Assembly: GCA_963674735.2 (NCBI GenBank)
Contig: CAXXQS010000002.1
Location: forward strand, 768,001 to 832,000
DNA length: 64,000 nucleotides
Origin: Myxococcota bacterium
Lineage (GTDB): Bacteria > Myxococcota_A > SURF-8
Direction of reading: 5' to 3'
Numbering within the stretch: the stretch's first letter is position 1; every line of letters begins with the position of its first letter. Shown in pieces: positions 3,212 to 64,000 of this stretch. Below the pieces are notes generated by a model, which saw nothing but the letters and a program-made list of their open reading frames with translations, had not been told where the DNA came from and did no database searches. The translations under genes and the position numbers were made by a program.

Positions 3212-3465
3212 CCGGACCACCTGACTCTCCCTCTGTCTGTCGATTGCACCGCAATCGTAGCCCAAGCGCGCCGCTAACGCAACGCTGAGCTGTAAAAGAT
3301 CGCAAATTCAATCCACCTGAAAAAGAAGAAGACCGAAGTCCCCAAAACAGGCAAAGCTGTCGCGCGTTAACAACCGCAAAATCCCATGATTTGACAAAAT
3401 CCTGTTGCAGGGTCAGTATGGAGGCATGATATGGAAACCCCAAAAGAATATGGAGTGCAAAACCC

Positions 3466-4347
3466 ATGATCAAATCAATGACTGGTTTCGGTTCAACCGA
3501 TCTGGCGGTGGGGGCCTTTCACCACCGCATCGAGCTACGTTCCGTCAACAGCAAGTTCTGCGACATTAAAGTCAAAACACCCCCCGACATGAACGGCCTT
3601 GAGCAGCGCATCATGGCCAAAATTCGGGAGAGACTGGCTCGCGGACGCGTGGATCTGCTGGTTTATCGTGAAGCGGCCGAAATGGACGTCCCACGCGCCG
3701 TGACGGTCAACTGGGATCTGCTCGACCAATATTTCAAAGCTTACCGGTCGATCCGCGAAAAATACGGCGTCAACCAGGATATCAACCTGAACAACATGAT
3801 CAACGCCCGCGAGGTCGTCACCTTGCAACGCCAGGCCGGAGATCTCGAAAGCATGTGGAAGAGTCTGGAGCCCGGTATCGATACCGTGTTGGATTCCCTG
3901 ATCGACATGCGTGAGAACGAAGGGCGCTTGCTGGCGGTAGACATGGCCGGACGCCTGGATATCATCAAGAAAATCGTCGGCAAACTCGCCGTTCTCGCTC
4001 CTGAAATGGTGGAAATCTACAAGAAGCGTTTGGAGGAAAGAATCGCGGCGCTTTTACCGCAAGGCGGAGTCGATGAGACGCGTCTGGCGCAAGAGGTTCT
4101 GTTTTTCGCCGACCGCACCGACATCACGGAAGAAATCATCCGCTTGAAAAGTCATATTCAACAGTTCCTGACTTTTCTCGACATCGTAGAGCCCGTTGGG
4201 CGCAAGCTGGACTTCCTCATCCAGGAAATGAACCGTGAAATCAACACCATCGGTTCAAAAAGCAGCAGTGCCGAAATCTCGCAGATGGTGGTGGAAGTGA
4301 AGAGCGAACTGGAAAAACTGCGCGAGCAGATTCAAAACGTCGAATAG
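3466..4347 (+). CDS. yicC: YicC/YloC family endoribonuclease
   Basis: MIKSMTGFG N-terminus; GRKLDFLIQEMNREINTIGSK; C-terminal EQIQNVE; lies upstream of gmk. Confidence 0.95.
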   Translation: MIKSMTGFGSTDLAVGAFHHRIELRSVNSKFCDIKVKTPPDMNGLEQRIMAKIRERLARGRVDLLVYREAAEMDVPRAVTVNWDLLDQYFKAYRSIREKYGVNQDINLNNMINAREVVTLQRQAGDLESMWKSLEPGIDTVLDSLIDMRENEGRLLAVDMAGRLDIIKKIVGKLAVLAPEMVEIYKKRLEERIAALLPQGGVDETRLAQEVLFFADRTDITEEIIRLKSHIQQFLTFLDIVEPVGRKLDFLIQEMNREINTIGSKSSSAEISQMVVEVKSELEKLREQIQNVE

Positions 4348-4371
4348 CCGGGGAATAGGAGATCGCAAGAC

Positions 4372-5010
4372 ATGAGCGAAGAGAGGGGAGAAAAGCTGTT
4401 TGTCGTCTCAGCGCCTTCAGGAGCCGGGAAATCCACCCTGACCCAGGCCGTGGCCCAAAAGCACCCGGAAATTCGACTATCCATCTCCTGTACCACCCGC
4501 ATGCGTCGTGGCGATGAGCAAGACGGGCGTGAATATTACTTCCTAAGCGAAGAAGAGTTTTCCGACCGCGTCAACCGTGGCGATTTTCTCGAATGGGCGC
4601 AAGTGCACGGAAACCGCTATGGAACCAGCCGCGAATTCGTCAACCGTCTGCTTCAGGATGGTTTGAAAGTCTTATTCGACATCGACGTTCAGGGGGCCGA
4701 CAAACTCAAGCAGGTTTACCCCGACGCCACCCTGATTTTTATCGCTCCGCCCAGTCGAGCCGAATTGAACCGGCGACTACGCGAACGTAAAACCGATGAT
4801 CCGGCAGAAATAGCCCGGCGGCTCAACAATGCTCTCGGTGAGATCGTTTTAGCGCGCCGCTATGACTTTGTTGTCATCAATGACGATCTAGCCACCGCCA
4901 CCGCCGAATTGGAATCGATTCTGCTCGGTCGTCCCGCGGTAAAAGCCGATCGGGACGCCGTGCTCGACCAACTGCTTCGGGAATTCAAGGATGCCGCAGC
5001 CACCGATTAA
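4372..5010 (+). CDS. gmk: Guanylate kinase
   Basis: SAPSGAGKST P-loop, SISCTTR, EWAQVHGNRYGT, DIDVQGA. Confidence 0.96.
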   Translation: MSEERGEKLFVVSAPSGAGKSTLTQAVAQKHPEIRLSISCTTRMRRGDEQDGREYYFLSEEEFSDRVNRGDFLEWAQVHGNRYGTSREFVNRLLQDGLKVLFDIDVQGADKLKQVYPDATLIFIAPPSRAELNRRLRERKTDDPAEIARRLNNALGEIVLARRYDFVVINDDLATATAELESILLGRPAVKADRDAVLDQLLREFKDAAATD

Positions 5011-7177
5011 AAAACGTTTTCGCGAGGTGCTGGCCAGCATCGTCGCGTATCTGCCAAACGCGGATGTGGAACGTCTGGAGCGGGCCTTCAACCAGGCCAT
5101 GCTTTGGCATGGAGCCCAGAAGCGGCAATCGGGCGAGCCGTTTATTCTCCATCCTCTTGAAGTCACTGCGATTCTGGCCCAATTGCGGCTCGATCAGGCA
5201 AGCCTGATCACGGGACTTCTACACGACAGCATCGAGGACACGGAAGCGACGCGCGAACTGGTCGAAAAGCAGTTCGGCAAAGAAGTCACCTTTCTGGTTG
5301 ATGGCGTTACCAAACTGACCCGACTGGATTTTCACACCAAGAAAGAACAGCAGGTTCAAAGCTTCCGCAAGATGTTTCTGGCCATGGCCAGCGATATCCG
5401 CGTCATCCTCGTCAAGCTGGCCGACCGTCTGCACAACGTCCGCACCCTGACCGGGCTGACCAGCGCGGATAAACAACTCGATCTGGCCCAGGAAACCCTC
5501 GATATCTATGCCCCGATCGCAGGCCGCTTGGGTATCCATTGGCTGCGCGTGGAGTTGGAAAACCGCGCCTTTGCCGCATTGATGCCCGAGCAGTACCGGG
5601 AAGTCGACGAATTCGTCACCCGTTATGTCAAAGAACAGGAAACATTTATTCATGGAACCGAGGAACGGTTGCGTGAATTGATGGCGGAACACGACATCCA
5701 GGCGAAAGTTTATGGTCGCACCAAGCATTATTTCTCGATTTTCCGCAAAATGCAGCGAAAGAATCTGCAACTCGACCAGATTTACGACATCATCGCCTTT
5801 CGCGTCATCATCCAGAATCTCGATCAGTGTTACCAGGCACTGGGGGCCGTCCACGCCGAATGGCGACCCATCCACGGCATGTTCGAAGATTACATCGCCA
5901 TGCCCAAACCCAACGGCTATCAGTCGCTGCACACCAACGTCATCAGTCATTACGGCGACCGCATGGAATTGCAGATCCGCACCGAAGCCATGCATGAGGT
6001 GGCCGAAAACGGAATCGCCGCCCACTGGCGTTACAAGGAAGGCCAGAAACAGGGATCCTTCGATGCCAACGAACAAGCCCAAATCAACTGGCTACGCCAA
6101 CTGATCGAAATTCACCAGGAAATGGACGACCCGGGCGAGTTGCTCGAATCCCTGAGGCTCAACCTTTTTTCCGGCTACGTGTTCGTTTTCACCCCTCAAG
6201 GCGAAGTCATCGAACTTCCGCGCGACAGCACTCCCATCGACTTTGCTTTCGCCGTCCACACCCAAGTGGGCCTCCACTGCGCCGGGGCGAAAGTCAATAG
6301 CCGCATCGTTCCCTTGCGTTACAAGTTGCACAACGGCGATGAAGTGGCGATCATCACCAACAAGAACCAGCGTCCCAAAAAAGAATGGCTGGATTTCTGT
6401 CAGACCAGCCGAGCCAAGAACAAAATTCGCCATTCCATTCGCGAAGAAGAACGCGAGCGTAGCCGTGAACTCGGACGTGAGCTGGCCGAACGGGAATTCA
6501 AACGTGTCGAGTTGAATTTCAACCGCCTGCTGAAATCGGGCGACCTCGACCGGGCTGCACAAGAGTTGAAAGCAAAGAATATCGAGGAGTTCCTCATCAC
6601 GCTGGGACGCGGCGGAAAACGCGTGTCCGACCTGTTGCGCATTATCGCACCCGAAAAAGTGGAACTGCCTCCCCCCGAGATTCCCGGATTATCGCGCGCG
6701 GCACAGAAATCCAAGCGTAGAAAATCACGTTCCGGCATCAAGATTTCCGGCATCGACGACCTGCTGGTGCATTTCGGAAAATGCTGTAATCCCATTCCCG
6801 GCGACGCCGTGGCGGGTTTCGTCACCCGCGGACACGGCATCACCATTCACCGCACGGATTGCTCCAAGATGCCGCGTGAAGAATCGGAGCGCATCCTGGA
6901 AGCTTACTGGGACGAAAAAGACGACATGGAGATGCCGGTCAGCATCAAAATAACCTCCCAGGATCGCCCCGGTATATTACAAGCTTTGACCGAAGTTTTT
7001 TCTAAAAATAACGTCAATATCAGTTCCGTCCAAGCCCAGACCGTAGACGGCATCGGCACCAGCCTGTTCCGTTTTCTGGTCAAAAACCTGGACCAGATGG
7101 ACACGATCCGCCGTAAACTCCGGCGGGTACGCGGCGTGCTGCGGGTAGAGCGCGTCGTGGATCATCGTCTACGTTAA
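4991..7177 (+). CDS. relA/spoT: Long RSH bifunctional (p)ppGpp synthetase/hydrolase (HD-SYNTH-TGS-ZFD-ACT)
   Basis: LLHDSIEDT hydrolase, KLADRLHN, KPNGYQSLHT, ELQIRT, VFTPQG...TPIDFAFAVHT (TGS), KCCNPIPGD, DRPGIL (ACT). Confidence 0.96.
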   Translation: MPQPPIKKRFREVLASIVAYLPNADVERLERAFNQAMLWHGAQKRQSGEPFILHPLEVTAILAQLRLDQASLITGLLHDSIEDTEATRELVEKQFGKEVTFLVDGVTKLTRLDFHTKKEQQVQSFRKMFLAMASDIRVILVKLADRLHNVRTLTGLTSADKQLDLAQETLDIYAPIAGRLGIHWLRVELENRAFAALMPEQYREVDEFVTRYVKEQETFIHGTEERLRELMAEHDIQAKVYGRTKHYFSIFRKMQRKNLQLDQIYDIIAFRVIIQNLDQCYQALGAVHAEWRPIHGMFEDYIAMPKPNGYQSLHTNVISHYGDRMELQIRTEAMHEVAENGIAAHWRYKEGQKQGSFDANEQAQINWLRQLIEIHQEMDDPGELLESLRLNLFSGYVFVFTPQGEVIELPRDSTPIDFAFAVHTQVGLHCAGAKVNSRIVPLRYKLHNGDEVAIITNKNQRPKKEWLDFCQTSRAKNKIRHSIREEERERSRELGRELAEREFKRVELNFNRLLKSGDLDRAAQELKAKNIEEFLITLGRGGKRVSDLLRIIAPEKVELPPPEIPGLSRAAQKSKRRKSRSGIKISGIDDLLVHFGKCCNPIPGDAVAGFVTRGHGITIHRTDCSKMPREESERILEAYWDEKDDMEMPVSIKITSQDRPGILQALTEVFSKNNVNISSVQAQTVDGIGTSLFRFLVKNLDQMDTIRRKLRRVRGVLRVERVVDHRLR

Positions 7178-7198
7178 TCCAAGCTACGGGAGTTTCAG

Positions 7199-7579
7199 AT
7201 GCCCCGAATTATCCTCCAAACCAAGAAAGCCCCGGCCGCCATCGGTCCGTATTCGCAAGCCGTTCAATACGGCGACCTGCTGTTTATCTCCGGTCAGATC
7301 CCCCTGGATCCCGGCACGATGAAACTCGTTGAGGGAGGAGTGGAAGAACAGACCCGGCGCGTGATGCTCAACCTCCAAGCCATTCTCGCCGAAGCGGGCA
7401 TGAGTTGGGATAACATTCTGAAAACAACCATTTACCTGGCTGACATGGCGGACTTCAAAACCGTCAATGAGATCTATGGCACATTCTTCCCAGAAAACGC
7501 TCCGGCACGCGCCACCGTGCAGGTCGGGCGTCTACCGCTCGACGTACGAGTGGAAATCGACGCCATTGCAGGCCGATAA
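7199..7579 (+). CDS. ridA: RidA/YjgF/UK114 reactive intermediate deaminase
   Basis: APAAIGPYSQA, SGQIPLDP, PARATVQV, VEIDAIA. Confidence 0.95.
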   Translation: MPRIILQTKKAPAAIGPYSQAVQYGDLLFISGQIPLDPGTMKLVEGGVEEQTRRVMLNLQAILAEAGMSWDNILKTTIYLADMADFKTVNEIYGTFFPENAPARATVQVGRLPLDVRVEIDAIAGR

Positions 7580-7594
7580 AGCGGAGAAATAGGG

Positions 7595-7822
7595 ATGGTT
7601 AAAAAGAAACAAGCCGCCCCCGGCGCAATGAAGGGATTGGCCGCGATCCTGCTGATGATCGAAGAAGAAGCCGATCCCACGAAAAGCGCAGCCCTGGAAT
7701 TTGTCTTGAAAGGAAGCGTGGAAAAATTGAGCGTCACTCGAAAAGACGTCGAGCGCTACCTCAAAGAAAACCGAGCGGCGGTCGCCGACGAGTTGAGCCG
7801 AAAGCAGCGGCCGACATCATGA
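7595..7822 (+). CDS. Small hypothetical protein (75 aa)
   Basis: Fills the ridA-mnmE gap; GGAG upstream; ATGA overlap with the mnmE start. Confidence 0.7.
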   Translation: MVKKKQAAPGAMKGLAAILLMIEEEADPTKSAALEFVLKGSVEKLSVTRKDVERYLKENRAAVADELSRKQRPTS

Positions 7823-9207
7823 CCCGCATCACCGACGACACCATCGCGGCGGTCACCACCCCGCCGGGCTCGGGTGGGGTGGGCATTATCCGCATTTCGG
7901 GAGAATCGGCCTTTGCGATCCTCGATGCGCTGTTCCATCCCGTCGCACGGAAAACCCAAGCCACCCACGGGCGCTCCGTACCCGGTACGATCGTCGATCC
8001 GACCGATGGACAACGGCTCGACTTCGTCCTGGCCCTACGTTTTTTTGCTCCCCATTCCTACACGGGGGAAAACGTAGCTGAAATACACGCCCACGGCGGC
8101 CGCCTGAACCTTGAACAGATTCTGTCATTGTGTCTGGCCCACGGTGCCCGCACGGCGCGTCCCGGTGAATTCACCCTGCGCGCCTTCCTAAATGGCAAGC
8201 TCGATCTGACTCGCGCCGAGGCGGTGCGGGAAGTGATCGAAAGTCAAACCGCCGCCGCCTTAAACGCTTCACGCCGCCATTTACAGGGCGATATCGCCAC
8301 CTTGTGTGAAACCGCGCGCGAATCCCTACTCGACATCCTGGCTCATATCGAGGCGCTGATCGATTTCCCCGAAGAAGATTTGCCGCCTTCCGCCGCCGCC
8401 GATTATAGCGAAACGATCCAAACCGTATCCCACACCCTGGGCCGTGCGGCCGACAGCTACGAGCGGGGACGACTCTTGCACGAAGGAGTGGAAGTCACCA
8501 TCGTCGGCGCACCCAACGTAGGAAAATCGTCGCTCCTCAATCGCTTGCTGCGTTCCGAACGCGCCATCGTCACCGACCAGCCGGGCACCACCCGCGACAT
8601 GGTCGATGGCATCATCGATCTGGCCGGGCTACCGGTACGTTTCGTCGATACGGCCGGACTGCGCGAAGCCGCCGCCGATCCGGTGGAAGCCATCGGCATG
8701 CAGCGTGCATGGAATCGTCTGGCGCAAGCCGATCTGGTGCTGTGGGTACTTGATGGCTCGCGCCCCCTGACAGACAACGAGCGCACACTGGCGACGCGCC
8801 TGGCTCCCCAGCGCGGCATCGCCATCCTGAACAAAGCCGACCGCCCGACCGCTTTGGATGTATCCGAACTGATACAGCTTGTCCCGGACTGGCCGACGGT
8901 TACGCTTTCCGCCAAAACCGGAGAGGGAATCGACGGACTCGAAACAGCGCTGAATCGTTTACTGGGCATGCCGTCGGTGGATTCCGATGAATTGTTGCTC
9001 ACCTCAGCTCGCCATCAACAGGGCTTTCGTCTGGCCGAACAGGCGTTAACTCGCACCCTGAATGCGCTGGAAAAAGGCGAAAACGCCTGGGAACTCATGG
9101 CCGCCGACCTTCATGAGGCACTCAACGCCCTGGAGGATCTGGTCGGCATCAGCACCCCCGATGACATCCTGCATCGCATTTTCTCGCGTTTCTGCATCGG
9201 CAAGTAA
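7819..9207 (+). CDS. mnmE: tRNA modification GTPase MnmE/TrmE
   Basis: DTIAAVTTP, SYTGENVAEIHAHGG, GAPNVGKSS, DTAG, NKAD, C-terminal FSRFCIGK. Confidence 0.97.
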   Translation: MTRITDDTIAAVTTPPGSGGVGIIRISGESAFAILDALFHPVARKTQATHGRSVPGTIVDPTDGQRLDFVLALRFFAPHSYTGENVAEIHAHGGRLNLEQILSLCLAHGARTARPGEFTLRAFLNGKLDLTRAEAVREVIESQTAAALNASRRHLQGDIATLCETARESLLDILAHIEALIDFPEEDLPPSAAADYSETIQTVSHTLGRAADSYERGRLLHEGVEVTIVGAPNVGKSSLLNRLLRSERAIVTDQPGTTRDMVDGIIDLAGLPVRFVDTAGLREAAADPVEAIGMQRAWNRLAQADLVLWVLDGSRPLTDNERTLATRLAPQRGIAILNKADRPTALDVSELIQLVPDWPTVTLSAKTGEGIDGLETALNRLLGMPSVDSDELLLTSARHQQGFRLAEQALTRTLNALEKGENAWELMAADLHEALNALEDLVGISTPDDILHRIFSRFCIGK

Positions 9208-9383
9208 TCTCCCATCCCACATGGGAATTGATTTCATTGGATAAACATGTCATCCTGAGAACGTTCAAACAGAGTTTTGGATCGGTAAGATGTTTCGTAT
9301 TATTACGGGAAGAGATCGTTCCACTATCGCGTCCACCCTGTAACCGATCATTTGCAACCGATCGGCCGATGAGGAGAAGCGTG

Positions 9384-10649
9384 ATGTCTGTCCGTTGGCT
9401 TGCACGATCGTTCATGCTTTTTGCCCTGTCGCTTGCCGTCTGGGCTTGCGCGGATGCCGGTCTGACCGTTACAGATGGCGACAACGGCACGTCGACTGAA
9501 ACCGATTACGACTTCACCGAGATTCCCGATGGCGATACCCCACCCGATGGCGACCCCGAGGCGTCCCTGCCCGATGGAGACATTCCGATCGACGGCGACC
9601 CGGACGTGCTTCCCGATGGCGATCTCGACGACGTCGAACCGGACCTCGACCCCGAGGTGGACGTGGAAGGCCCCGCCGAACACGACACCGATCTCGACGC
9701 CGAACCGGCTCCCGAAACCGATGGCGATGCGTTTGTCGATTACGAGCCCGATTTCGAGGCGGGTGGCCTTTATGTCGGCACCGAAAATCCTTACTCCTTA
9801 GCCCTCATGGATACCGCCATTTACGACGTGGCCAAGGACACACAAGGAGCCCCGGTCGCGATGAAAATTTTCACCCCGGCCGAGGAAGGTGAATACGCGG
9901 TTATCGTCTATCAGCACGGTTTTCTGATGGCCAACCACTACTACACCACCCTGCTCAATCACATCGCCTCACATGGCTTCATCGTCGTGGCTCCACAGAT
10001 GTATACCGCCGGTCCGATTCCAATCGGTCAACCCACGGCTTACGAAGAAGCGGCGCTGGCGCTTTCCCTGTATGAGTGGCTGCCGGATCATCTAAACGGC
10101 TATGCACGGGTGACGGCCCGCATGGACCGTCTGGGGTTGTCGGGGCATTCCCGCGGCGGCAAAGTGATCTGGATCGTTCTTAGCGAGCACCCCGAGCTCG
10201 CCGACGCGGTGGCGGGAGTGGATCCGGTAGACGGCCAGGGCGGACCGCTGGGTGGCGAGGAACGCATCATCGACGGCGCCTTCGACCTCGACTTTCCCAG
10301 TCTTATTTTGGGAACCGGGCTCGGTCCGCTTGCGGCAAGTATCTTTTCCCCGGCCTGTGCACCGGAAGGCGACAACCACGAACAGTTTTACGCCGCCAGT
10401 CCATCGCCCGCCTTCCACGTGATCGCACCGGAATACGGCCACAACGACATGCTGGAAGATGCCCCGATCGGCTGTACGGTGGAATGCACATCCTGCCTCG
10501 CCGGGCCGTCGCGCGCGCCGATGCGCACGCTGACCGCCGGACTGCTGGTGGCCTTTTTCCGCGCCACATTGCAAGGCGATGTCCAGGCATTCGACTATTT
10601 GACCGATACCCAATCCGCCCCCATATCGGTGACGGTGGAAACCAAGTAA
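9384..10649 (+). CDS. Lipoprotein with a DGD-repeat linker and a chlorophyllase-family alpha/beta hydrolase domain
   Basis: Lipobox LAVWAC; HGF, HIASHGFIVVAPQ, GHSRGG nucleophile, DPVDG, YGHNDML (chlorophyllase-like triad context); RBS GAGGAG at 9371. Confidence 0.82.
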   Translation: MSVRWLARSFMLFALSLAVWACADAGLTVTDGDNGTSTETDYDFTEIPDGDTPPDGDPEASLPDGDIPIDGDPDVLPDGDLDDVEPDLDPEVDVEGPAEHDTDLDAEPAPETDGDAFVDYEPDFEAGGLYVGTENPYSLALMDTAIYDVAKDTQGAPVAMKIFTPAEEGEYAVIVYQHGFLMANHYYTTLLNHIASHGFIVVAPQMYTAGPIPIGQPTAYEEAALALSLYEWLPDHLNGYARVTARMDRLGLSGHSRGGKVIWIVLSEHPELADAVAGVDPVDGQGGPLGGEERIIDGAFDLDFPSLILGTGLGPLAASIFSPACAPEGDNHEQFYAASPSPAFHVIAPEYGHNDMLEDAPIGCTVECTSCLAGPSRAPMRTLTAGLLVAFFRATLQGDVQAFDYLTDTQSAPISVTVETK

Positions 10650-10691
10650 TGGATTTTGCCAAGTTCGCATAACGCAACAGGCGAGGTGAGC

Positions 10692-11333
10692 ATGGAAATC
10701 AAGGATTTTCTCGTATCGCGGCGGTCCACCCGCTTTTTCGATCCCTCCCGCCGCATCGACGAAAGCACGCTTCGGCGCATCCTCGAACAAACCCTCAATG
10801 CACCCTCCAATTTCAACTTGCAACCCTGGCGCTACATCCTGGTCACCTCGCCCGAGGGAAAACGACGGCTTTTCGAAACGGCCGCTCGACAACAGAAGGT
10901 GCACGACGCCTCGGCCATCCTGATTGTATGCGGCGACACCACCTGCTGGCGCGAAGCAGAACGGATGGCCGACGACATGGTCGAAAAAGGTTACTTCCCG
11001 GCCGAAGCGCGCCAGGGCTATTTGAATCTGGTCCGCGCCCGCTATAAAGACGCACCGCAAGCCCGCGACACCGTCCTGCGCGACGTCATGATGGCGGCTA
11101 CCCTGGTGATTGCGGCAGCCGCCGATGAAGGGGTGGATGCAACACCGCTTTCCGGTTTCGATCCGGCCGGGTTGTCTAACAGCTTCGGGATTCCGGACGA
11201 GGTGTTGCCCGTCCTGCTGATCGCGCTCGGTTACGCCCGTAAAGCCGATCCGCCGCGTGCTCGACGCAAGGAACTGGCCGACGTGTTGTGTGTGGAGTCC
11301 TGGACGCTACCCGTTGCGGGAAAAAAGGCCTGA
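10692..11333 (+). CDS. Nitroreductase family protein
   Basis: RRSTRFFD, APSNFNLQPWRY, LSGFD, LIALGY. Confidence 0.92.
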   Translation: MEIKDFLVSRRSTRFFDPSRRIDESTLRRILEQTLNAPSNFNLQPWRYILVTSPEGKRRLFETAARQQKVHDASAILIVCGDTTCWREAERMADDMVEKGYFPAEARQGYLNLVRARYKDAPQARDTVLRDVMMAATLVIAAAADEGVDATPLSGFDPAGLSNSFGIPDEVLPVLLIALGYARKADPPRARRKELADVLCVESWTLPVAGKKA

Positions 11334-11359
11334 CTCGCCTTCCCGGCAAATCAGGCCTT
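11325..11359. terminator. Hairpin between convergent genes
   Basis: AAGGCCTGA...TCAGGCCTT inverted repeat. Confidence 0.45.
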
Positions 11360-11391
11360 CACATGCTGAAAAGAAACGGGACTCGAACTCC

Positions 11392-12846
11392 CTAAATCTG
11401 CACACCAACCACAAACCCGGGGGCGAGACGCACACTGGTGTCGGCGTAACTGCCCACCTTGAACTGCGGCAAAAAGCTTGCGTCTTTGTGTGACAAGCCA
11501 TCCGCTTCATACCACGAGACGTTCAGCGTCGGTCCGAAGATCAGCGCCACCCGCTCATCAACCTGCCACCCAGCCAACACGCGCCATTTGGACATATAGG
11601 CCGCTTCGCTGAAATCGTCGGTGGCATTGATACGCAGCGTCAGAATATCCGTATCGATGAACCAGCGTTCGTTAATGGGAATATGACCGCCCAAGCCCAT
11701 CCCGTATTGCAAGGTACGCTCGGCCACCAGCGGCTGCATACCGATCGTGTAGATGTTGTAAATATAGCGACTACCGAGCTTGAGTCCCATATTCACCACG
11801 GCGGTATCGCTACTCCAGAAATTGCCATGCAACATCCCTTTTTTGACGATGGACAAAAGCCCGATCGGCACGTCGACGTCGTCGGCGTAGTTTACCAAGC
11901 CCAGCTGCAAACCCCGATGGCGGCCGGTATCCACATTCACCAGACCGATTTGCGCCGCCCGTGCCTGTTCTACAGCCGCCACATTCACCAGACCAAGCTG
12001 TGCGCCGGTAAATCGGTCACCGCTGACCACATGCACCAAACCGAATTGCAAGCCTTTCAAATCGTGGGCATGGGTGACCAGACCGGTCTGCAAACCGCGG
12101 ACGTCTCCCAAGGTCAACGCCAGAAGACCACTCTGCCAACCGGTAGCATCGCCTTTCGCGGCAGCAAAAACGTAACCCCACTGCACACCGGTAACATCGC
12201 CCAAAGCCAAGCTGCCGAGCCCACTCAACTGAACGCCTTTCAGGTCGCCACCAGCGTGGGTGTAAAGCCAGCCCATCTGGAGACCCACCACATCCGCCGC
12301 AACATAGTCGACCAATCCGGAGGCCGAAAGGCCCGTTACATCGTCCAGCGTGACATTCACCAGGCTCGCCGTCACTCCTTTGCTATCCCGGTGGGTGACA
12401 TTGACGAACAACGACAAAGCCAGACCGCGTAAGGCATCCTGTTCGGTCGCGAAAAATCCCAAGCTGACATTGTTCAAAACGGGACCGTCAAAGGCCGAGT
12501 TGATCTGGGCGGGCGGGAAAAGCCCGAGATTGAAAGGAACGACGTTGTATTTCAATGGCTTGGGCGATTCTTTCGACTCTCCGAGGCGGGCGCGTTCCAG
12601 TTCGGCCCGCGCTTTTTCGGCCTCGGCTTGGGCCTTTTCGGCCTCGTATCCGGCTTTCTCCATTTCCGCTTGCAAGCGCTCCATTTCTCTCACTCGCGCA
12701 TCCGGCGGTTCCGCCTCGAAATGTTCAGATGCTTGGGCCCAAGCCGTGGAAACCATTGTAACTACAAACAAAAAAGATAAGAGCAGGAGATGCGGACCCT
12801 GCTTTGACCTGCGACTATCGGAGCGTAATCTAATTTGCGTATACAT
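11392..12846 (-). CDS. Exported protein with coiled coil, ~15-aa GxQxGLVN repeats (LA_2272-like) and a C-terminal beta-rich domain
   Basis: Signal peptide ...STAWA; repeats GLQTGLVT, GLQFGLVH, GAQLGLVN, GLQLGLVN. Confidence 0.75.
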   Translation of the reverse strand: MYTQIRLRSDSRRSKQGPHLLLLSFLFVVTMVSTAWAQASEHFEAEPPDARVREMERLQAEMEKAGYEAEKAQAEAEKARAELERARLGESKESPKPLKYNVVPFNLGLFPPAQINSAFDGPVLNNVSLGFFATEQDALRGLALSLFVNVTHRDSKGVTASLVNVTLDDVTGLSASGLVDYVAADVVGLQMGWLYTHAGGDLKGVQLSGLGSLALGDVTGVQWGYVFAAAKGDATGWQSGLLALTLGDVRGLQTGLVTHAHDLKGLQFGLVHVVSGDRFTGAQLGLVNVAAVEQARAAQIGLVNVDTGRHRGLQLGLVNYADDVDVPIGLLSIVKKGMLHGNFWSSDTAVVNMGLKLGSRYIYNIYTIGMQPLVAERTLQYGMGLGGHIPINERWFIDTDILTLRINATDDFSEAAYMSKWRVLAGWQVDERVALIFGPTLNVSWYEADGLSHKDASFLPQFKVGSYADTSVRLAPGFVVGVQI

Positions 12847-13152
12847 GATGCCTCCTTAAAAGCGGCCTCGGCCGCCTGTTTTGCCTTCGCCTGAATCAAC
12901 ACCGCTCGACGCCAGAGGTGTCACCGGTCAACTTGATTCGATGCAAACAAGCCGCGTCGTCTTTTACAACAGACACCAATCCGCTCCACGTCGCAGAATA
13001 ATCGACGCACCGCAAAATATTTCACTGGTTTTCGCGATTTTCTTGCCGTTTTTTGGCATCTGTGCTCTCATCAATTGCGGCTAATCGCTATGTTTGCCTA
13101 TTATCCGATGTCGATCCCGCGATTGCCCCGATTCAAACAGCAGGAGGAAGCG

Positions 13153-14577
13153 ATGCGTTACGAGGATGTCGTCGAGCTGTGCGAAACCCACAAAATCGAA
13201 AACCTGGATTTGAAGTACGTTGACCTGTTTGGTCGTTGGTACCACCTCACCCTCCCGGCTTCGCGGCTCAACCGCGAAATCTTCGAACAAGGCGAACCTT
13301 TCGACGCCTCCAGCGTCCCCGGCTACAAATCCGTTGAATCGGGCGACATGGTCATGATCCCGGATCTCGACACCATCGAACTCGATCCCTTCTGGGCGCG
13401 TCCGACCCTATCGATGATTTGCAGTATTTTCGAGGCGGACACCAAGCAGCCTTTCTCTCGCGACCCCCGAAATGTGGCGCGCCGCGCCGAAAGCCTGTTG
13501 GCGTCCGAATGTAAAGGAGCAAAGAGTTTATGGGGGCCGGAGTTCGAATTTTACATTTTCGACTCGGTCAACGTGAAAGAAGACGTGAATACCAGTTTTT
13601 ATATGATCGATTCACAAGAAGCCGACTGGAACAGCCAGATGGACGGCCAAAACCTGGGGCACAACATCCCCGCGCAGGGCGGCTACCACGCGATCTCACC
13701 CCAAGATACCATGCACGATCTGCGGGCCGAAATGGCCGCCACGCTTGAGGAAATGAACATCCCCGTTCGCTATCACCATCACGAAGTGGGCGGACCCGGC
13801 CAAAGCGAGATCGAAACCCTGCTGGATACGTTATCCCGCATGGGGGACAACACCATGCGGGCCAAGCACATCATCAAAAATACGGCTCAACGTCACGGAA
13901 AAACCGTCACGTTCATGCCCAAGCCACTGTTCAACGAAGCGGGTAGCGGCATGCACTTTCACCAATACCTGATCGGCCCCGACGGCCAAAACCTGTTTTT
14001 GGACGAAAGCGGCTACGCCGGACTCAGCGAATTGGCCCTGTATTATATCGGAGGTCTTTTACACCATGGGCGCGCGTTGCTGGCCTTTACGAACCCCAGC
14101 ACCAACAGCTACAAACGGCTCGTACCGGGTTTTGAAGCACCGACCAAGCTGTTTTTCGGGCAGGCCAACCGCTCGGCGGCGGTGCGCATTCCCAAATATG
14201 CACTGGGACAGAAAAAACGCATCGAATTTCGCTCTCCCGATGGCACCTGCAACCCCTACTTCGCCATGTCGGCCATGCTGCTGGCGGGACTCGACGGTAT
14301 CCGAAACAAGCTCGATCCGACAAAAATGGGGATGGGGCCCTACGATATGAACGTCAGCAAGATCGCGCCGGAAGAACTCGCCCACATCCGGTCGGTCCCG
14401 TCCTCGCTCATCGAGGCCTGCCACGCGCTGGAAGACGATCACGCGTTCCTGCTCGAAGGTAACGTTTTCACCGAAGAAATCATCGAAACCTGGGTGCGCT
14501 ACAAAATCGACAACGACTATTACGCCGTACGCAACCGCCCCCACCCGTACGAGATCAAACTCTATTTCGATTCTTAG
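13153..14577 (+). CDS. glnA: Glutamine synthetase type I
   Basis: FDASSVPG, GPEFEFYIF, HHHEVG, TFMPKP, GSGMHFH, NSYKRLVPGFEAP, NRSAAVRIP, RIEFRSPD; RBS AGGAGG. Confidence 0.97.
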   Translation: MRYEDVVELCETHKIENLDLKYVDLFGRWYHLTLPASRLNREIFEQGEPFDASSVPGYKSVESGDMVMIPDLDTIELDPFWARPTLSMICSIFEADTKQPFSRDPRNVARRAESLLASECKGAKSLWGPEFEFYIFDSVNVKEDVNTSFYMIDSQEADWNSQMDGQNLGHNIPAQGGYHAISPQDTMHDLRAEMAATLEEMNIPVRYHHHEVGGPGQSEIETLLDTLSRMGDNTMRAKHIIKNTAQRHGKTVTFMPKPLFNEAGSGMHFHQYLIGPDGQNLFLDESGYAGLSELALYYIGGLLHHGRALLAFTNPSTNSYKRLVPGFEAPTKLFFGQANRSAAVRIPKYALGQKKRIEFRSPDGTCNPYFAMSAMLLAGLDGIRNKLDPTKMGMGPYDMNVSKIAPEELAHIRSVPSSLIEACHALEDDHAFLLEGNVFTEEIIETWVRYKIDNDYYAVRNRPHPYEIKLYFDS

Positions 14578-59727: not shown

Positions 59728-62700
59728 TCAAATACGACCTCGGATAAACAGGCTGACGCGCGTGGGAATGGTCTCGCCGCCCATACTTTGACCAAACAGT
59801 AGCTGACGCGGATACTGCGAGTAGCGCGGAGAGGCGATACCCGAGGCTTCCCGGTAGATGACCGAGCCGTTGTGGACCTTTTGATCGCTGAGCGAAAAGC
59901 CGTTGTTGCCGACATCCTGCCACAGGCTGGGCAGGTGCAATAAGTCCAGCAGGGCCACTCCCACTTCCATGCGTCCATCGAACAGGGTGTAGCTGGCGTT
60001 GAGATTCAGGATGAAGTAAGGATCGATGCTTTCGATGCCGTAGGTGGTGGTAGTTCCATCGGCGGATTTGGAATAAACCGCCACTGGACCCATTCCTTCG
60101 TAGCGCACCCAGTTGCCGGTCCGATCGGGATCGTAACCGAAGGTCAGAAATCGCGCCCTTGACAAGCGCGTGAGGAAATTCTTGCGAGTGGTCTCGCTGA
60201 CGAAGTGCCCGAAAATATTGGCGGAAAAACCCTTGTAATGCGTATTGAAGCCGATGTTGGCTTTGTGGGACGGGTTCTCCTTGTGTACGGTGGTGATGTC
60301 TTCCAGGCTCACGTTTTCGGTCAGGGCGTCCAGATAGGCATCTTTCGAATACTCCCCCGAGTCATCGAAGATACGGTTCGGCGTGCTTACACCGGCCGCC
60401 TCGAAATTGATTGAATCGGGCAGCGCATCGACGAAAGCTTCCTTGCGATCCACGTAATCCGACTTGAGCTGGTTGGCATTCGTCACCCAGATATGCTGGA
60501 AACTGTAGTTGACAAAGCCCCTCAGCCAGCTGGTGATGCGAAAGCGCGCCTCCACCTCGAACCCGACATTGTTGGCATCCACATCGTTGTTGAAGTTGAA
60601 GGGATCGAGGACTTCCGGATCGATGGCACCGGCGCTGAAGGGATTGAGCGCCCAGTACAACTTATCGGTATCGCCCTCGAACAGGATCAGATCGCGCACC
60701 CAGTTGAAGAAAAAATCGGCCGAAACTTCAACCCGGCGAGCGATGCGGCCGTTATAACCGAATTCGGCGGAGACCATCTTCTCCGGCTTGAGATTGGGGT
60801 TGCTTTCGAAGGCAAGCGGCGCGCGGGTATCGAGATCGGGTAGGGTGGCGTTCGGATCGAGCGCCGTGAGGATGCTCGGCGGCGTAAGCTTCGACAGCGG
60901 GGCCGAAACCGTCATGTCGGCCAACTTGACTTTCATGTTGGATTCGAAAAAGGCCGGGTTACGAAAGGAGACACCGCCCGAGACGCGCAGCGTGTGGTCT
61001 TTATGGGGGATGAACACCAGCGCCCCGCGCGGTGAAATCGAATGAATGTTGTCCACCTCGCGCCCGGGATGGTCGGGATTTTCCTCATCCACGTCCATCA
61101 GATCGTAGCGCAGTCCGGCATTGAACAAAAACCAGTCCCAAGGATACAACTCGTTCTGCAAGAAGGCCGAGTAACTGTTGCGCTGACTGCTGGAATCCAC
61201 CAGATCGGGGGAGTCGAGTAACACGAAGCGCAGATTGCCGCCGGCGGTAATGCGGTCCATCTCGGCCAGCTCGATGCTGTAGGTCAAATCCAGATCGAAG
61301 GTGTGGCCGCTCGAACGCACGCGCGGGGGATCCTGCTGGTCGATCTGCAAGGTGATGATCTCCCGGTCGCGCTCCTCGGCCCATTGTTCCGTTCCCAAAC
61401 GCCGCGAGTCGTACCACATCGGATCGGCGGCCACGAAGCCGGGGATCGGCACGTCGAAGCTGAGATCGGCCGCCAGATAGGTATAGAAAAACTGCGCCTT
61501 CAATCCCTTCCATTGACCGTTGAGCTTGGTATAGGCTTGGGTGGTGTTCACGCTGACCGGTCCGATCAGACTGAAAATCGACCCGACCTTGTCTTTTTCG
61601 GCCCCACCGGTCAACGAAAAGGAGAAATCCTTGGCAATGGAGTATTCGGCGAACAGATTGCCTTTGACCGATTCCAAGGCCAGTTCGTCCATGTCGTCAT
61701 AGGACAACAAGCGACGGTAGCTGGCCGACACCTTGTAACCCAGGTTATCCTTGACGTCGCCGAAAACCGCCGAGCCGGTGAAACCGCCGGTCCCGCCGTC
61801 GAAGGAGTAGATCAGGCCCTTGATGTCTTCGGGCTTGCGCGTGTAAATATTGACCACCCCGGAAAAGGCGTTGGCGCCGTACAGCGTGGAACCGGGCCCG
61901 CGAATCACCTCCATGCGATCGATGTCCTCGACCGGTACCGGCAGCGCCTCCCAGAAGGTGATGCCGAAGAGATCGACATACACCGAACGGCCGTCGATCA
62001 ACACCAGCATTTTGTTGGCCCCCTCGCGATTGAAGCCGCGGGTGGTCAGATTCTTGTCGGCGGAACTGATTTCCAGAAAGTCCATCCCCGGCACCGTCCG
62101 CAGAACGTCGGCGATGGAGGAGGAACCGTAATTGCGAATATCTTCGCCCGTAATAACGGTAATGGCGGAGGGCGAGTGCGAAATATCCTGCTCGACTTTG
62201 GACGCCGAAACGACCTTGGCTTCGGTCTCGAACGTGAACAAGGCGAATTCATCGGCCAGGTTCAAACTGTCGCTTTCCGTCTCCGCCTCGGGGGTTTCGT
62301 CGAGGCCCGTCTCGGACTCGCTGGCCAGGGTTCGCGGTTCCGGCAAACGAACACTTTCTTCTGGCCCGCCGGGAGTGAGGCTGTCCGAGCCCTGTTCGGG
62401 GTCCACTTCCATGGCCAGCGGCGGCGCAGGCGGCGGCGTGAAACTCGTCACCACGCGCACCATGGCCGGACTTTCTTCGTCGCGAAAGATCATCCGTTTT
62501 TTTCCGCGCTGATCGAACGCCACGGCATACAACTCGATTCCCGGATTGGAAACGTGGCGGCCCGGAATCGTGGCCGTCCAGCGTTCGCCGCTGCGTTTCT
62601 TGATGAAGACGGTTTTCCAACTGGAGCGAAGGAGGTTGCGATAGTACACCAGGGCATAGTCGATCGATGTGCCACTGGGCCGAAGTGTGAATTCCAGGGT

Positions 62701-62826
62701 CAGGGGTTTATCCACCAGCGTCTCTTCGGGCGGCTGACAATCGCAATAGATTCGCGCGGCCTGTGCACCGAAAGTCCATAGCAGGAGCCATCCGATCAGC
62801 GCCAATGTCCCTACCCGACGCGCCAT
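59728..62826 (-). CDS. TonB-dependent receptor with an N-terminal Ig-like extension
   Basis: Signal peptide; VVSASK...SPSAITVIT plug, LVLIDGR, IDRMEVIRGPGSTLYGANAFSGVVNI, NPNLKPEK; ATG 62826 with GGAGG. Confidence 0.92.
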   Translation of the reverse strand: MARRVGTLALIGWLLLWTFGAQAARIYCDCQPPEETLVDKPLTLEFTLRPSGTSIDYALVYYRNLLRSSWKTVFIKKRSGERWTATIPGRHVSNPGIELYAVAFDQRGKKRMIFRDEESPAMVRVVTSFTPPPAPPLAMEVDPEQGSDSLTPGGPEESVRLPEPRTLASESETGLDETPEAETESDSLNLADEFALFTFETEAKVVSASKVEQDISHSPSAITVITGEDIRNYGSSSIADVLRTVPGMDFLEISSADKNLTTRGFNREGANKMLVLIDGRSVYVDLFGITFWEALPVPVEDIDRMEVIRGPGSTLYGANAFSGVVNIYTRKPEDIKGLIYSFDGGTGGFTGSAVFGDVKDNLGYKVSASYRRLLSYDDMDELALESVKGNLFAEYSIAKDFSFSLTGGAEKDKVGSIFSLIGPVSVNTTQAYTKLNGQWKGLKAQFFYTYLAADLSFDVPIPGFVAADPMWYDSRRLGTEQWAEERDREIITLQIDQQDPPRVRSSGHTFDLDLTYSIELAEMDRITAGGNLRFVLLDSPDLVDSSSQRNSYSAFLQNELYPWDWFLFNAGLRYDLMDVDEENPDHPGREVDNIHSISPRGALVFIPHKDHTLRVSGGVSFRNPAFFESNMKVKLADMTVSAPLSKLTPPSILTALDPNATLPDLDTRAPLAFESNPNLKPEKMVSAEFGYNGRIARRVEVSADFFFNWVRDLILFEGDTDKLYWALNPFSAGAIDPEVLDPFNFNNDVDANNVGFEVEARFRITSWLRGFVNYSFQHIWVTNANQLKSDYVDRKEAFVDALPDSINFEAAGVSTPNRIFDDSGEYSKDAYLDALTENVSLEDITTVHKENPSHKANIGFNTHYKGFSANIFGHFVSETTRKNFLTRLSRARFLTFGYDPDRTGNWVRYEGMGPVAVYSKSADGTTTTYGIESIDPYFILNLNASYTLFDGRMEVGVALLDLLHLPSLWQDVGNNGFSLSDQKVHNGSVIYREASGIASPRYSQYPRQLLFGQSMGGETIPTRVSLFIRGRI

Positions 62827-63045
62827 GCGACCACCTCCCCAAAGCCAATCGTTTTCGACGGGATCGGCAACGATGATGAGTGATGACAAATTTCCATATC
62901 CATCAATTTCTGCACCAGTATAACATTTAGAGCACGAAAAGGCAAAGTCGCGAAAGTGTGAAAATGGGTGCCGGACACCACTTTTTGCCTTGCGTCGCCC
63001 CCGCACCTTCCTTATGCTGAAGCGATAAAAATGCGAGGTGGTGCG

Positions 63046-64000
63046 ATGTCCGAACATGGATATCTATTGGCCGACAACCCGCGCAACCGGGCTTTCGAAC
63101 GCGCGATTCAGGCTCAGATCGAGCCCGGCCAGGTGGTGTGCGATTTGGGCTGTGGAACGGGAATTCTGGGGTTTATGGCCCTGCGCGCCGGAGCCGGACG
63201 CGTGATCGGCATCGAACAGGATCGCGTGATCGACGAAGCCCGCCAGTTGGCCGCCGCAAACATGTGGAGCGAGCGCACGGTCTATTTGCAGGGCCGCTCG
63301 GATGAGCTCAGCCCCCCCGAACCCGCCGACTGGATCGTGGTGGAATGGCTCAGCAGTCTGGGAGCCGACGAATGGCCCCCCTGGATTCTGGCGGATGCGC
63401 TTCAGCGCTACCTCAAGCCGGGCGGGCGCATCATTCCGGCCGCCGTCCAACACTACCTGGTTCCGGTATGCGCCCCCGAAACATGGACGGCCGCCCTGGG
63501 ACACGCGAGCGGCACGCGCTATGGAGTCGACTGGCGACCCTTGCTCGACTCCGCCTCCAAGCGCTTGTACGCATTCGACATCCCCGCCGAGAGCGCCCTC
63601 GACACGCCGCGCTGTTGGCTGGATGTGTCGCTGAGCGACGCGGAACGGCTGCGCAGCCTCAATCCCTTCGAAGGCGGCCCGCTCGCGTTCACCGTTCAAC
63701 GCGACGGGGATTGCCATGGGCTGGCGGGTTGGTTCGCCGCCGACTTAGGGTCGGGCATCACGTTGACCAATGCGCCCGAAGCCGCCCCGACGCATTGGCG
63801 ACAGACGTTTCTGCCCCTGGCCGAAACCGCTGAACGTCAAAAAGGGCGACACCCTGACGGCCCGCGTGGCCAAACGCTGGGTGGGAAACAACAGCCATCA
63901 TAGCTGGCAGGTCGAGCAGCGGCGGAACGAGACAGTCATCGCCTGCGGCGGCTCCGGCGAGACATGGGCCGACGCCCTGACTCCCGCCGAAATGGCCCGT
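63046..64000 (+). CDS. PRMT-like (protein arginine methyltransferase fold) SAM methyltransferase; apparent +1 frameshift at 63824-63826 (frame 0 stops at 63903, shifted frame runs off the window)
   Basis: VCDLGCGTGIL, VIGIE, EWLSSLGADE, YLKPGGRIIP, HGLAGWF, PTHWRQT; RBS GAGGTG. Confidence 0.85.

Follow-up and report, generated by a model that had tools for sequence, protein, structure and literature searches.

The closest described relatives of the enzyme reported here are the eukaryotic type I protein arginine methyltransferases (PRMT6, PRMT1, PRMT2, PRMT3, PRMT8 and CARM1), which combine a Rossmann domain with a beta-barrel, carry motif I, the double-E loop and the THW loop, and act on RGG proteins or histones. 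N-methylation of the guanidino group of arginine is also described in a bacterial small-molecule pathway, the biosynthesis of streptozotocin, in which SznE/StzE acts on free arginine according to two reports (PMC11705231, PMC12637814). Among peptide-modifying systems, PqqD-PqqE, the MftB-MftC pair of mycofactocin and the ScmC/D/E genes of the SynChlorMet cassette have a PqqD-like element encoded immediately before a SPASM enzyme. The clusters for linear polyphosphorylated peptides (lpp) and paeninodin have a core set consisting of a signal-peptidase-I-like protein, a stand-alone RRE, a kinase resembling HprK, an NTP-transferase-like protein and an ABC exporter, as given by Popov et al. 2026 (PMC13381572).

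The window analysed here is a stretch of 64,000 nucleotides from the genome designated G000, and the gene under study lies at its 3’ end. The encoded protein shares with the eukaryotic type I PRMTs the Rossmann and beta-barrel fold, motif I, the double-E loop and the THW loop, but it is only ~27% identical to them and has an extra helical C-terminal tail of ~80 aa, and its gene is bacterial and translationally coupled to a radical SAM/SPASM gene. Its substrate is likely a small ribosomal peptide, in contrast to the RGG proteins or histones of the eukaryotic enzymes. The likeness to SznE/StzE, which is a comparison of descriptions and not of sequences, is that of bacterial arginine-guanidino N-methylation; the difference is that SznE/StzE – presumably an enzyme that may itself have the PRMT fold – uses free arginine.

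The arrangement of the locus also resembles the known peptide systems. As in the PqqD-PqqE, MftB-MftC and ScmC/D/E systems, a PqqD-like element is encoded immediately before the SPASM enzyme, but in contrast to PqqD-PqqE and other RRE/rSAM pairs, this element is the helical half only and is fused to a methyltransferase. Orthologs of the G000 radical SAM (rSAM) protein adjoin a precursor peptide gene and an ScmC/HprK-like gene, which is the likeness to the SynChlorMet cassette. A cluster in the related genome G272 has the lpp/paeninodin core set as described in PMC13381572, with the difference that the peptides of the G272/G000 family contain Cys and are accompanied by a SPASM maturase. The NCBIfam equivalog cut-offs of the SynChlorMet, HPr-rel-A and lpp-type curated families are not reached, and the discrete PqqD is the only component to exceed its cut-off in Pfam. 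The G000 system would work like the SynChlorMet, HPr-rel-A and lpp-type systems and is a member of no curated family. The reading preferred here, with a probability of about 0.5, is that the PRMT-tail enzyme and its SPASM partner are an accessory RiPP-tailoring pair for a ribosomal peptide family, in which the PRMT-tail enzyme N-methylates a core arginine.

A PRMT-fold enzyme with a C-terminal tail

The PRMT-like gene starts at position 63046 on the forward strand, with a Shine-Dalgarno-like GAGGTGG (63035..63041, +), read from the sequence, 4 nt 5’ of the ATG. As assembled it is an ORF of 285 aa (63046..63903, +). The gene is real and intact, and it encodes a class I methyltransferase of ~390 aa with a canonical PRMT fold, in which a SAM-binding Rossmann domain is followed by the PRMT beta-barrel, carrying the double-E and THW loops, and by a helical tail of ~80 aa. 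The Rossmann methyltransferase domain and most of the beta-barrel are encoded by codons 1–260 (63046..63825, +). The rest of the gene continues in the +1 frame (63827..64000, +) with the last barrel strands and the onset of the helical PqqD-like tail, and its stop is at window-equivalent 64219 (L002 3220), 219 bases past the end of the window.

Motif I, VCDLGCGTG (63136..63162, +), the SAM-binding motif, aligns with VLDVGAGTG of PRMT6. The double-E loop EWLSSLGADE (63343..63372, +) has its two glutamates, E100 and E109 (E-x8-E), opposite the two of PRMT6, and T249-H250-W251 of the THW loop (63790..63798, +) is aligned with the PRMT6 THW. A phmmer search against all PDB sequences gave 73 matches at E<=1e-3, with PRMT6 as the top match (E 8.6e-22, residues 2–257); the named molecules among the best 60 of these 73 matches were PRMTs. 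In the PRMT6 alignment the H/D/R pre-motif, motif I, the post-I Glu (VIGIE), both glutamates and THW are all in register, so the motifs are not chance look-alikes: judged by these alignments, the likeness to PRMTs is well beyond chance, and the arginine-binding Glu/Glu/His-Trp residues are intact. The sequence-only reading had proposed a full PRMT motif set for 63046..63903, and every motif that it listed was found.

The NCBIfam matches were weak, generic methyltransferase matches, each far under its cut-off, and a Pfam scan of the assembled 285-aa reading gave PrmA (34.8 bits) and Methyltransf_25 (33.6 bits). The beta-barrel was matched by Pfam PRMT_C at residues 159–267 of the assembled reading (32.8 bits, with a cut-off of 27), and the same family matched the intact ortholog in genome G004 with 52.3 bits. 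A profile of the family aligned with PRMT6 at E 3.9e-62 over profile positions 5–278.

The G000 gene was analysed as two frame pieces together with the intact G004 ortholog, whose identity to G000 is 45% in the core and 41% in the C-terminal part. The fold model was built on this ortholog, not on the G000 protein itself, with the 30-row alignment A1 as input, and the AlphaFold model had a mean pLDDT of 88.7 and a pTM of 0.81. Foldseek found at least 500 matches to the G004 model in the PDB; the 39 that were listed are PRMT6, PRMT1, PRMT2, PRMT3 and CARM1, with PRMT6 and PRMT1 at the head, and 4y2h_A was matched at E 9.1e-29. PRMT1 (1orh_A) overlays on the model with a TM of 0.85 (normalised to the target) and an rmsd of 2.6 over 310 columns, and matches to PRMT1/6 span 310–325 columns. 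The model has helices at 146–172, where the PRMT dimerisation arm would sit. The absence of a PRMT beta-barrel had been named beforehand as the result that would count against a PRMT, and a structural overlay on PRMTs as a check; the barrel is present, both in the PRMT_C match and in the G004 model, and the overlay on 1orh_A agrees with the assignment.

PRMT-like genes are frequent in the phylum. A search with the profile of the family found them in 77 of the 301 sampled genomes (E<=1e-20), and the view of PRMTs as mostly eukaryotic and rare in bacteria, from which the sequence-only reading had started, is not supported here. At E<=1e-3 the protein database contained 62 relatives, which fall into two length classes, ~290–320 aa and ~372–393 aa. 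A pattern search of the genome contigs based on a single protein gave 130 pattern matches, of which none was confirmed.

An automated alignment of 125 rows combined 61 database proteins with ORFs from 30 loci in genomes and 41 in metagenomes; in it G004 is counted twice, G000 is split in two, and the scan patterns used for the metagenomes favour the first Glu. Glu/Glu/His-Trp was present without the tail in 37 rows (one of them G000’s own N-terminal piece), the tail was present without Glu/Glu/His-Trp in 42 rows, and neither was present in 41. The remaining five rows had both and represent four distinct genes – those of G004 (twice), G008, G272 and the metagenome locus L057. With G000, which is in split rows, five distinct genes among those examined have the canonical residues and the tail. 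The PRMT-like fold is ordinary in the phylum, and the combination of a full arginine pocket, a PqqD-like tail and a SPASM partner is unusual.

Most of the tail-bearing relatives in this alignment have non-canonical loops, and for this reason arginine is not necessarily the target throughout the tail-bearing family. In two genomes, G207 and G067, tailed PRMT-fold genes have HprK-like and nucleotidyltransferase-like neighbours, to which lasso B2/C-like genes are added in G207. The tailed methyltransferases of such lasso/HprK-kinase clusters have the same architecture as the G000 protein and a homologous tail (alignment A1), but their first Glu, second Glu and THW are replaced (e.g. D...E/D shifted by one, I-x-R), whereas G000 keeps all of them and has a SPASM maturase as its partner. 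To judge by these alignments, the G000 clade is an exception among the tailed family in keeping the arginine residues. A further group, from the metagenome loci L059–L067, L071 and L072, consists of tail-less PRMT-like proteins of ~312 aa with both glutamates and T-E-W or T-Q-W in place of THW, and may form a separate bacterial PRMT subgroup.

The tail was modelled as four helices with no strands, both in the G004 model (residues ~312–392) and in the last 80 residues of G000 folded separately (7-row alignment, pLDDT 82.2). Its consensus across the long-form relatives is L..xGxARxxVLxxCDGxRTxxEIE......HPxLFPS......FVAxVL, which we take to resemble the PqqD signature. Pfam PqqD (PF05402) had no match to the G000 C-terminal part at E<=0.01, and matched 4 of 30 family members, with a best E of 0.0017. 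An hhalign comparison of the tail with two true PqqD proteins gave a probability of 27% over 26 columns (the L..LDG.R motif), and the tail profile matched PqqD 5sxy in the PDB at E 0.92, on the columns of the same motif. When the tail model was compared with 48,161 chains, the top match was Xanthomonas PqqD, 3g2b_A (Z 5.7, rmsd 3.0, 53 residues, chain 36–88). Seven chains had Z>=5, and ordinary winged-helix domains tied with the top within ~1 Z unit; the RRE region of MibB had a Z of 4.6 and the lasso B1 protein 6jx3_B a Z of 4.5. The winged helix-turn-helix of an RRE, three strands then three helices, was not found in the tail models, which contain helices only and are without the beta-strands by which known RREs bind leaders. 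Because the PqqD tests are weak though all point the same way, the tail is described, on its models, as a possible PqqD-like helical half-domain that resembles half an RRE, and it is not classed as an RRE. The mycobacterial lysine methyltransferase Rv2067c (PDB 8hkr) was considered as a relative of the tail (E 0.34; Z 4.3, 23% identity at residues ~338–397, in its C-terminal domain) and rejected – its middle domain is described as different and its C-terminal domain as alpha+beta, and the likeness is probably that of a shared helical arrangement.

The coupled radical SAM/SPASM gene and a candidate precursor peptide family

Inspection of the downstream genes, which the sequence-only reading had suggested, revealed a radical SAM/SPASM gene (L002 3217–4299, 360 aa) whose ATG overlaps the TGA of the PRMT-like gene (ATGA, L002 3217–3220). 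The protein has a CX3CX2C radical SAM core, read in the sequence as CSLNCVHC, and a Cys-rich SPASM domain (Pfam Radical_SAM 81.4 bits, SPASM 36 bits). NCBIfam matched it best with NirJ2, TIGR04053, AhbD, the maturase of mycofactocin, PqqE and ScmE, and each of these scores falls far short of its cut-off (ScmE 96.5 against 400, PqqE 106 against 381). A hairpin lies 3’ of the gene. The flanks of the pair are unrelated to it: a divergent TonB-dependent receptor gene upstream and F0 ATP synthase genes downstream. The longest reading of the receptor ORF (59728–63057, −) overlaps the start of the PRMT-like gene, and its true start is probably MARRVGTLALIG...; its best NCBIfam match is the TOL_0244 family (165.9 bits, with a cut-off of 645), and its plug domain is preceded by an insert of ~200 aa that is acidic and rich in Pro.

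The same pair of genes is found in three other places. The rSAM of G004 is 47% identical to that of G000, and its start overlaps the gene before it; in L057 it is 45% identical, with a 1-base gap between the genes and a terminator behind them; and in G272 it is 27% identical and the pair is inside a larger cluster. No neighbours of the pair are shared among G000, G004 and L057, and no conserved small ORF that could be a precursor gene was found on either side of it in these three. Since no precursor adjoins the pair there, the link of the pair to a peptide is indirect. Orthologs of the rSAM without a PRMT-like gene before them were found in G003 (44% identical) and G002 (40%). The G003 locus is syntenic with L057, with an Rrf2-like regulator upstream and a Cys-rich secreted protein downstream.

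The G272 cluster (L055, G272:C1:20000–36000, about 3300–13300) has nine genes on one strand, in the order: a 60-aa ORF, a B12-radical SAM protein, an HprK-like protein, a signal-peptidase-I-like protein, the PRMT-tail enzyme, the rSAM/SPASM protein, PqqD, an ABC exporter and a nucleotidyltransferase-like protein. The signal-peptidase-I-like protein matched TIGR02228 with 35.5 bits, below the cut-off, and PqqD scored 39.2 bits; the best NCBIfam match of the B12-radical SAM protein was ApyD-like, with 109 bits against a cut-off of 750. This is an elaborated lpp-type cluster.

A peptide family was found by searching with the 60-aa ORF of G272 and then with its G000 relative. The G000 candidate precursor gene (C2:1693644–1693799; L106 8645–8800) is on the same contig as the PRMT-like gene, 862 kb from it, and a motif scan of G000 found only this one such peptide, which had no Pfam match. 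The G004 peptide is 62% identical to it (E 5.4e-15), and the G008 peptide matched at E 1.2e-5. An HprK/ScmC-like P-loop gene directly follows the peptide gene in G000 and G004, with weak NCBIfam matches (ScmC 30.1 against 125, HprK_rel_A 17 against 200). In G008 the peptide, the HprK-like gene and the PRMT-tail gene are in one operon, with the peptide gene immediately upstream. The only Pfam PqqD gene of G000 (59.7, with a cut-off of 23.4) lies 8 kb upstream of its peptide gene. Directly upstream of the peptide gene, in a synteny conserved between G000 and G004, is a gene for a giant secreted repeat protein of 2500 aa (L106 974–8476, G000 C2:~1685973–1693475; in G004, L108 1–1353). A G000 nucleotidyltransferase (PF14907) at C2:1.288 Mb was considered as a member of the system and rejected; its neighbours are sugar-metabolism-like genes, and its likeness to the nucleotidyltransferases of the clusters is weak.

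The peptides have a leader with a basic N-terminus and the sequence ..KKP-Y-x-K-P-x-V-x-S-x-K-I-[YF]-E-R-L-x-L-x-C (in the family, Y-x-K-P-x-V...[FY]-E-R-x-L-x-C), followed by a short core with 1–3 further Cys and often a Ser at the end. The Y-x-x-P-x-V of the leader resembles the YxxPxL motif bound by lasso RREs. One core arginine is present in each of the G000 (GKATQPPCRTPLKSA, ending ..PPCRTPLKSA), G004 (GLATVPPCRPPAKSG), G008 (...PQCSTRSGLQS) and G272 (...SGRISACTTCK...) peptides. A complex prediction that combined the PRMT-tail protein of G004, the peptide of the same genome and SAM had a score of 0.00 and a mark of 0.32, and it counts neither for nor against the pairing.

A profile of six peptides found the family in 23 of the 301 genomes, including all four genomes that have a canonical PRMT with a tail; the genomes compared are relatives, and these counts are not independent. 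An HprK-like gene adjoins the peptide gene at 17 of the 20 best loci, and at half of them (10/20) the order is peptide, HprK-like gene, rSAM-SPASM, with rSAMs 30–42% identical to those of G000 and G004. When these ten rSAM fragments were searched by tblastn against the whole G000 genome, the best match of every one (10/10) was the gene after the PRMT-like gene, with bit scores of 78–117 against at most 80 for the runner-up, two of the margins being small. This identifies the G000 rSAM as the counterpart of the peptide-associated maturase. The peptide/HprK pair is also present in genomes without a PRMT-like gene, which makes the PRMT-tail gene an optional add-on to the peptide/rSAM system. A core Arg is present in 4/4 peptides from genomes with a canonical PRMT-tail gene and in 6/15 of the others – a hint, given how few and how related the genomes are; G001 is an example of a genome that has a core Arg but no PRMT-tail gene.

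Possible substrates of the enzyme

The sequence-only reading had left two options for the substrate, bacterial proteins or peptides, and the context points to a peptide. The analysis shows the fold, the catalytic residues, the coupling of the genes and the links between neighbourhoods; what is inferred is the substrate, which of its atoms is modified and in what order the steps occur. The PRMT-like and rSAM/SPASM proteins would be translated together and act as a tailoring pair. The leader of the peptide would be held by PqqD and/or by the tail, and the SPASM enzyme would modify the core, with its two Cys as the probable sites. A C-terminal Ser may be phosphorylated by the HprK-like protein, by analogy with the lpp and paeninodin systems. 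Next, the PRMT domain would take a methyl group from SAM and place it on the guanidino group of the one arginine in the core.

Within the same peptide family, the methyl group could be placed on something other than an Arg side chain – a Lys, the N-terminus, a Cys thiol or a carboxylate – as may be the case for the larger tailed family of the lasso/HprK clusters. The cores also contain Lys, Ser, Thr and Cys, and in 42 alignment rows a tail occurs without Glu/Glu/His-Trp, so that the tailed scaffold evidently serves other active sites as well. A non-arginine target is given a minor chance, since G000, G004, G008, G272 and L057 keep both glutamates and THW in the PRMT6 register, which is hard to explain unless arginine is bound.

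The enzyme might also be a general protein arginine methyltransferase of cellular proteins, with the adjacent rSAM gene incidental. Canonical PRMT-like proteins without a tail are frequent in the alignment, PRMT-like genes are widespread in the sampled genomes, and the G000 pair has no precursor gene next to it; but the rSAM gene is coupled in each case – by the ATGA overlap in G000, and tightly in G004 and L057 – the short forms are without the tail, and the gene lies inside peptide clusters in G008 and G272. A role on cellular proteins is considered unlikely. Methylation of free L-arginine or another small guanidine would have a precedent in SznE/StzE, a bacterial arginine-guanidino methyltransferase of free arginine (PMC11705231, PMC12637814), and would fit a cassette with no adjacent peptide gene. 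This is quite improbable for G000: the receptor and ATP synthase genes that flank the cassette are not those of a small-molecule pathway, and the partner belongs with the SPASM-type peptide maturases and has orthologs beside precursor peptides.

A full-text literature search, with most subscription journals outside its scope, found no RiPP, lasso or SPASM context for a PRMT-type enzyme, and the RiPP tailoring reactions in the literature searched do not include the N-methylation of an arginine side chain by an enzyme of the PRMT fold; the word ‘methyltransferase’ has 0 occurrences in the main text of PMC13381572. This could be, though we put it forward tentatively and at less than even odds, the first recognised PRMT-type RiPP arginine N-methyltransferase, belonging to a small clade with a full eukaryote-style pocket, a chaperone-like tail and a hard-wired SPASM maturase, whose product would be a methyl-arginine peptide of an undescribed class, crosslinked by thioether or otherwise at Cys and possibly phosphorylated. 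The clade could then mark the bacterial stock of the eukaryotic PRMTs and of the divergent methyltransferases of lasso clusters. The system bears on whether bacteria have canonical PRMT catalysis outside eukaryote-like contexts, and with a candidate enzyme, a partner maturase and a candidate substrate peptide all identified, new peptide chemistry is open to a co-expression test.

The apparent frameshift

In the deposited assembly, the frame of the PRMT-like gene after ...THWRQTFLPLAE turns to unrelated sequence and stops at 63903, where the sequence-only reading had placed the end of the gene. That end is false. The +1 frame from about 63827 carries on with PLNVKKGDTLTARV..., the sequence expected of PRMTs and of the orthologs (PLNVKKGD...), and the shift is located in a GAAAC run (window 63823–63827) whose run of A (63824..63826, +) has one extra A in the assembly. 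The Logan contigs of 3/3 public runs omit one A at L002 2825, which is window 63824, and are otherwise identical here. Two of these runs (X1 and X2) are from one sample and the third (X3) is from a second sample of the same study, a sample that may be the source of the assembly itself, and the check rests on assembled contigs, not on raw reads.

With one A removed the gene reads through, with 260 + 130 = 390 codons, a length in line with its intact relatives (392 aa in G004, 380 aa in G008 and 390 aa in the metagenome locus L057). The stop at 63903 is an assembly error, a one-base homopolymer insertion. A frameshifted pseudogene without function, which the +1 shift at 63824–63826 and the stop in the deposited assembly would suggest, is very improbable, because the gene reads through without the extra A to the length of its intact relatives; that A is missing from the contigs of all three runs, albeit from two samples of one study and possibly the assembly’s own source, and each half shows in-frame conservation with intact orthologs. 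What looked like a pseudogene, in a long assembly that is nearly complete, was a homopolymer error of one base. Other apparent frameshifts in the same genome, which is assembled in three contigs, may be homopolymer errors too.
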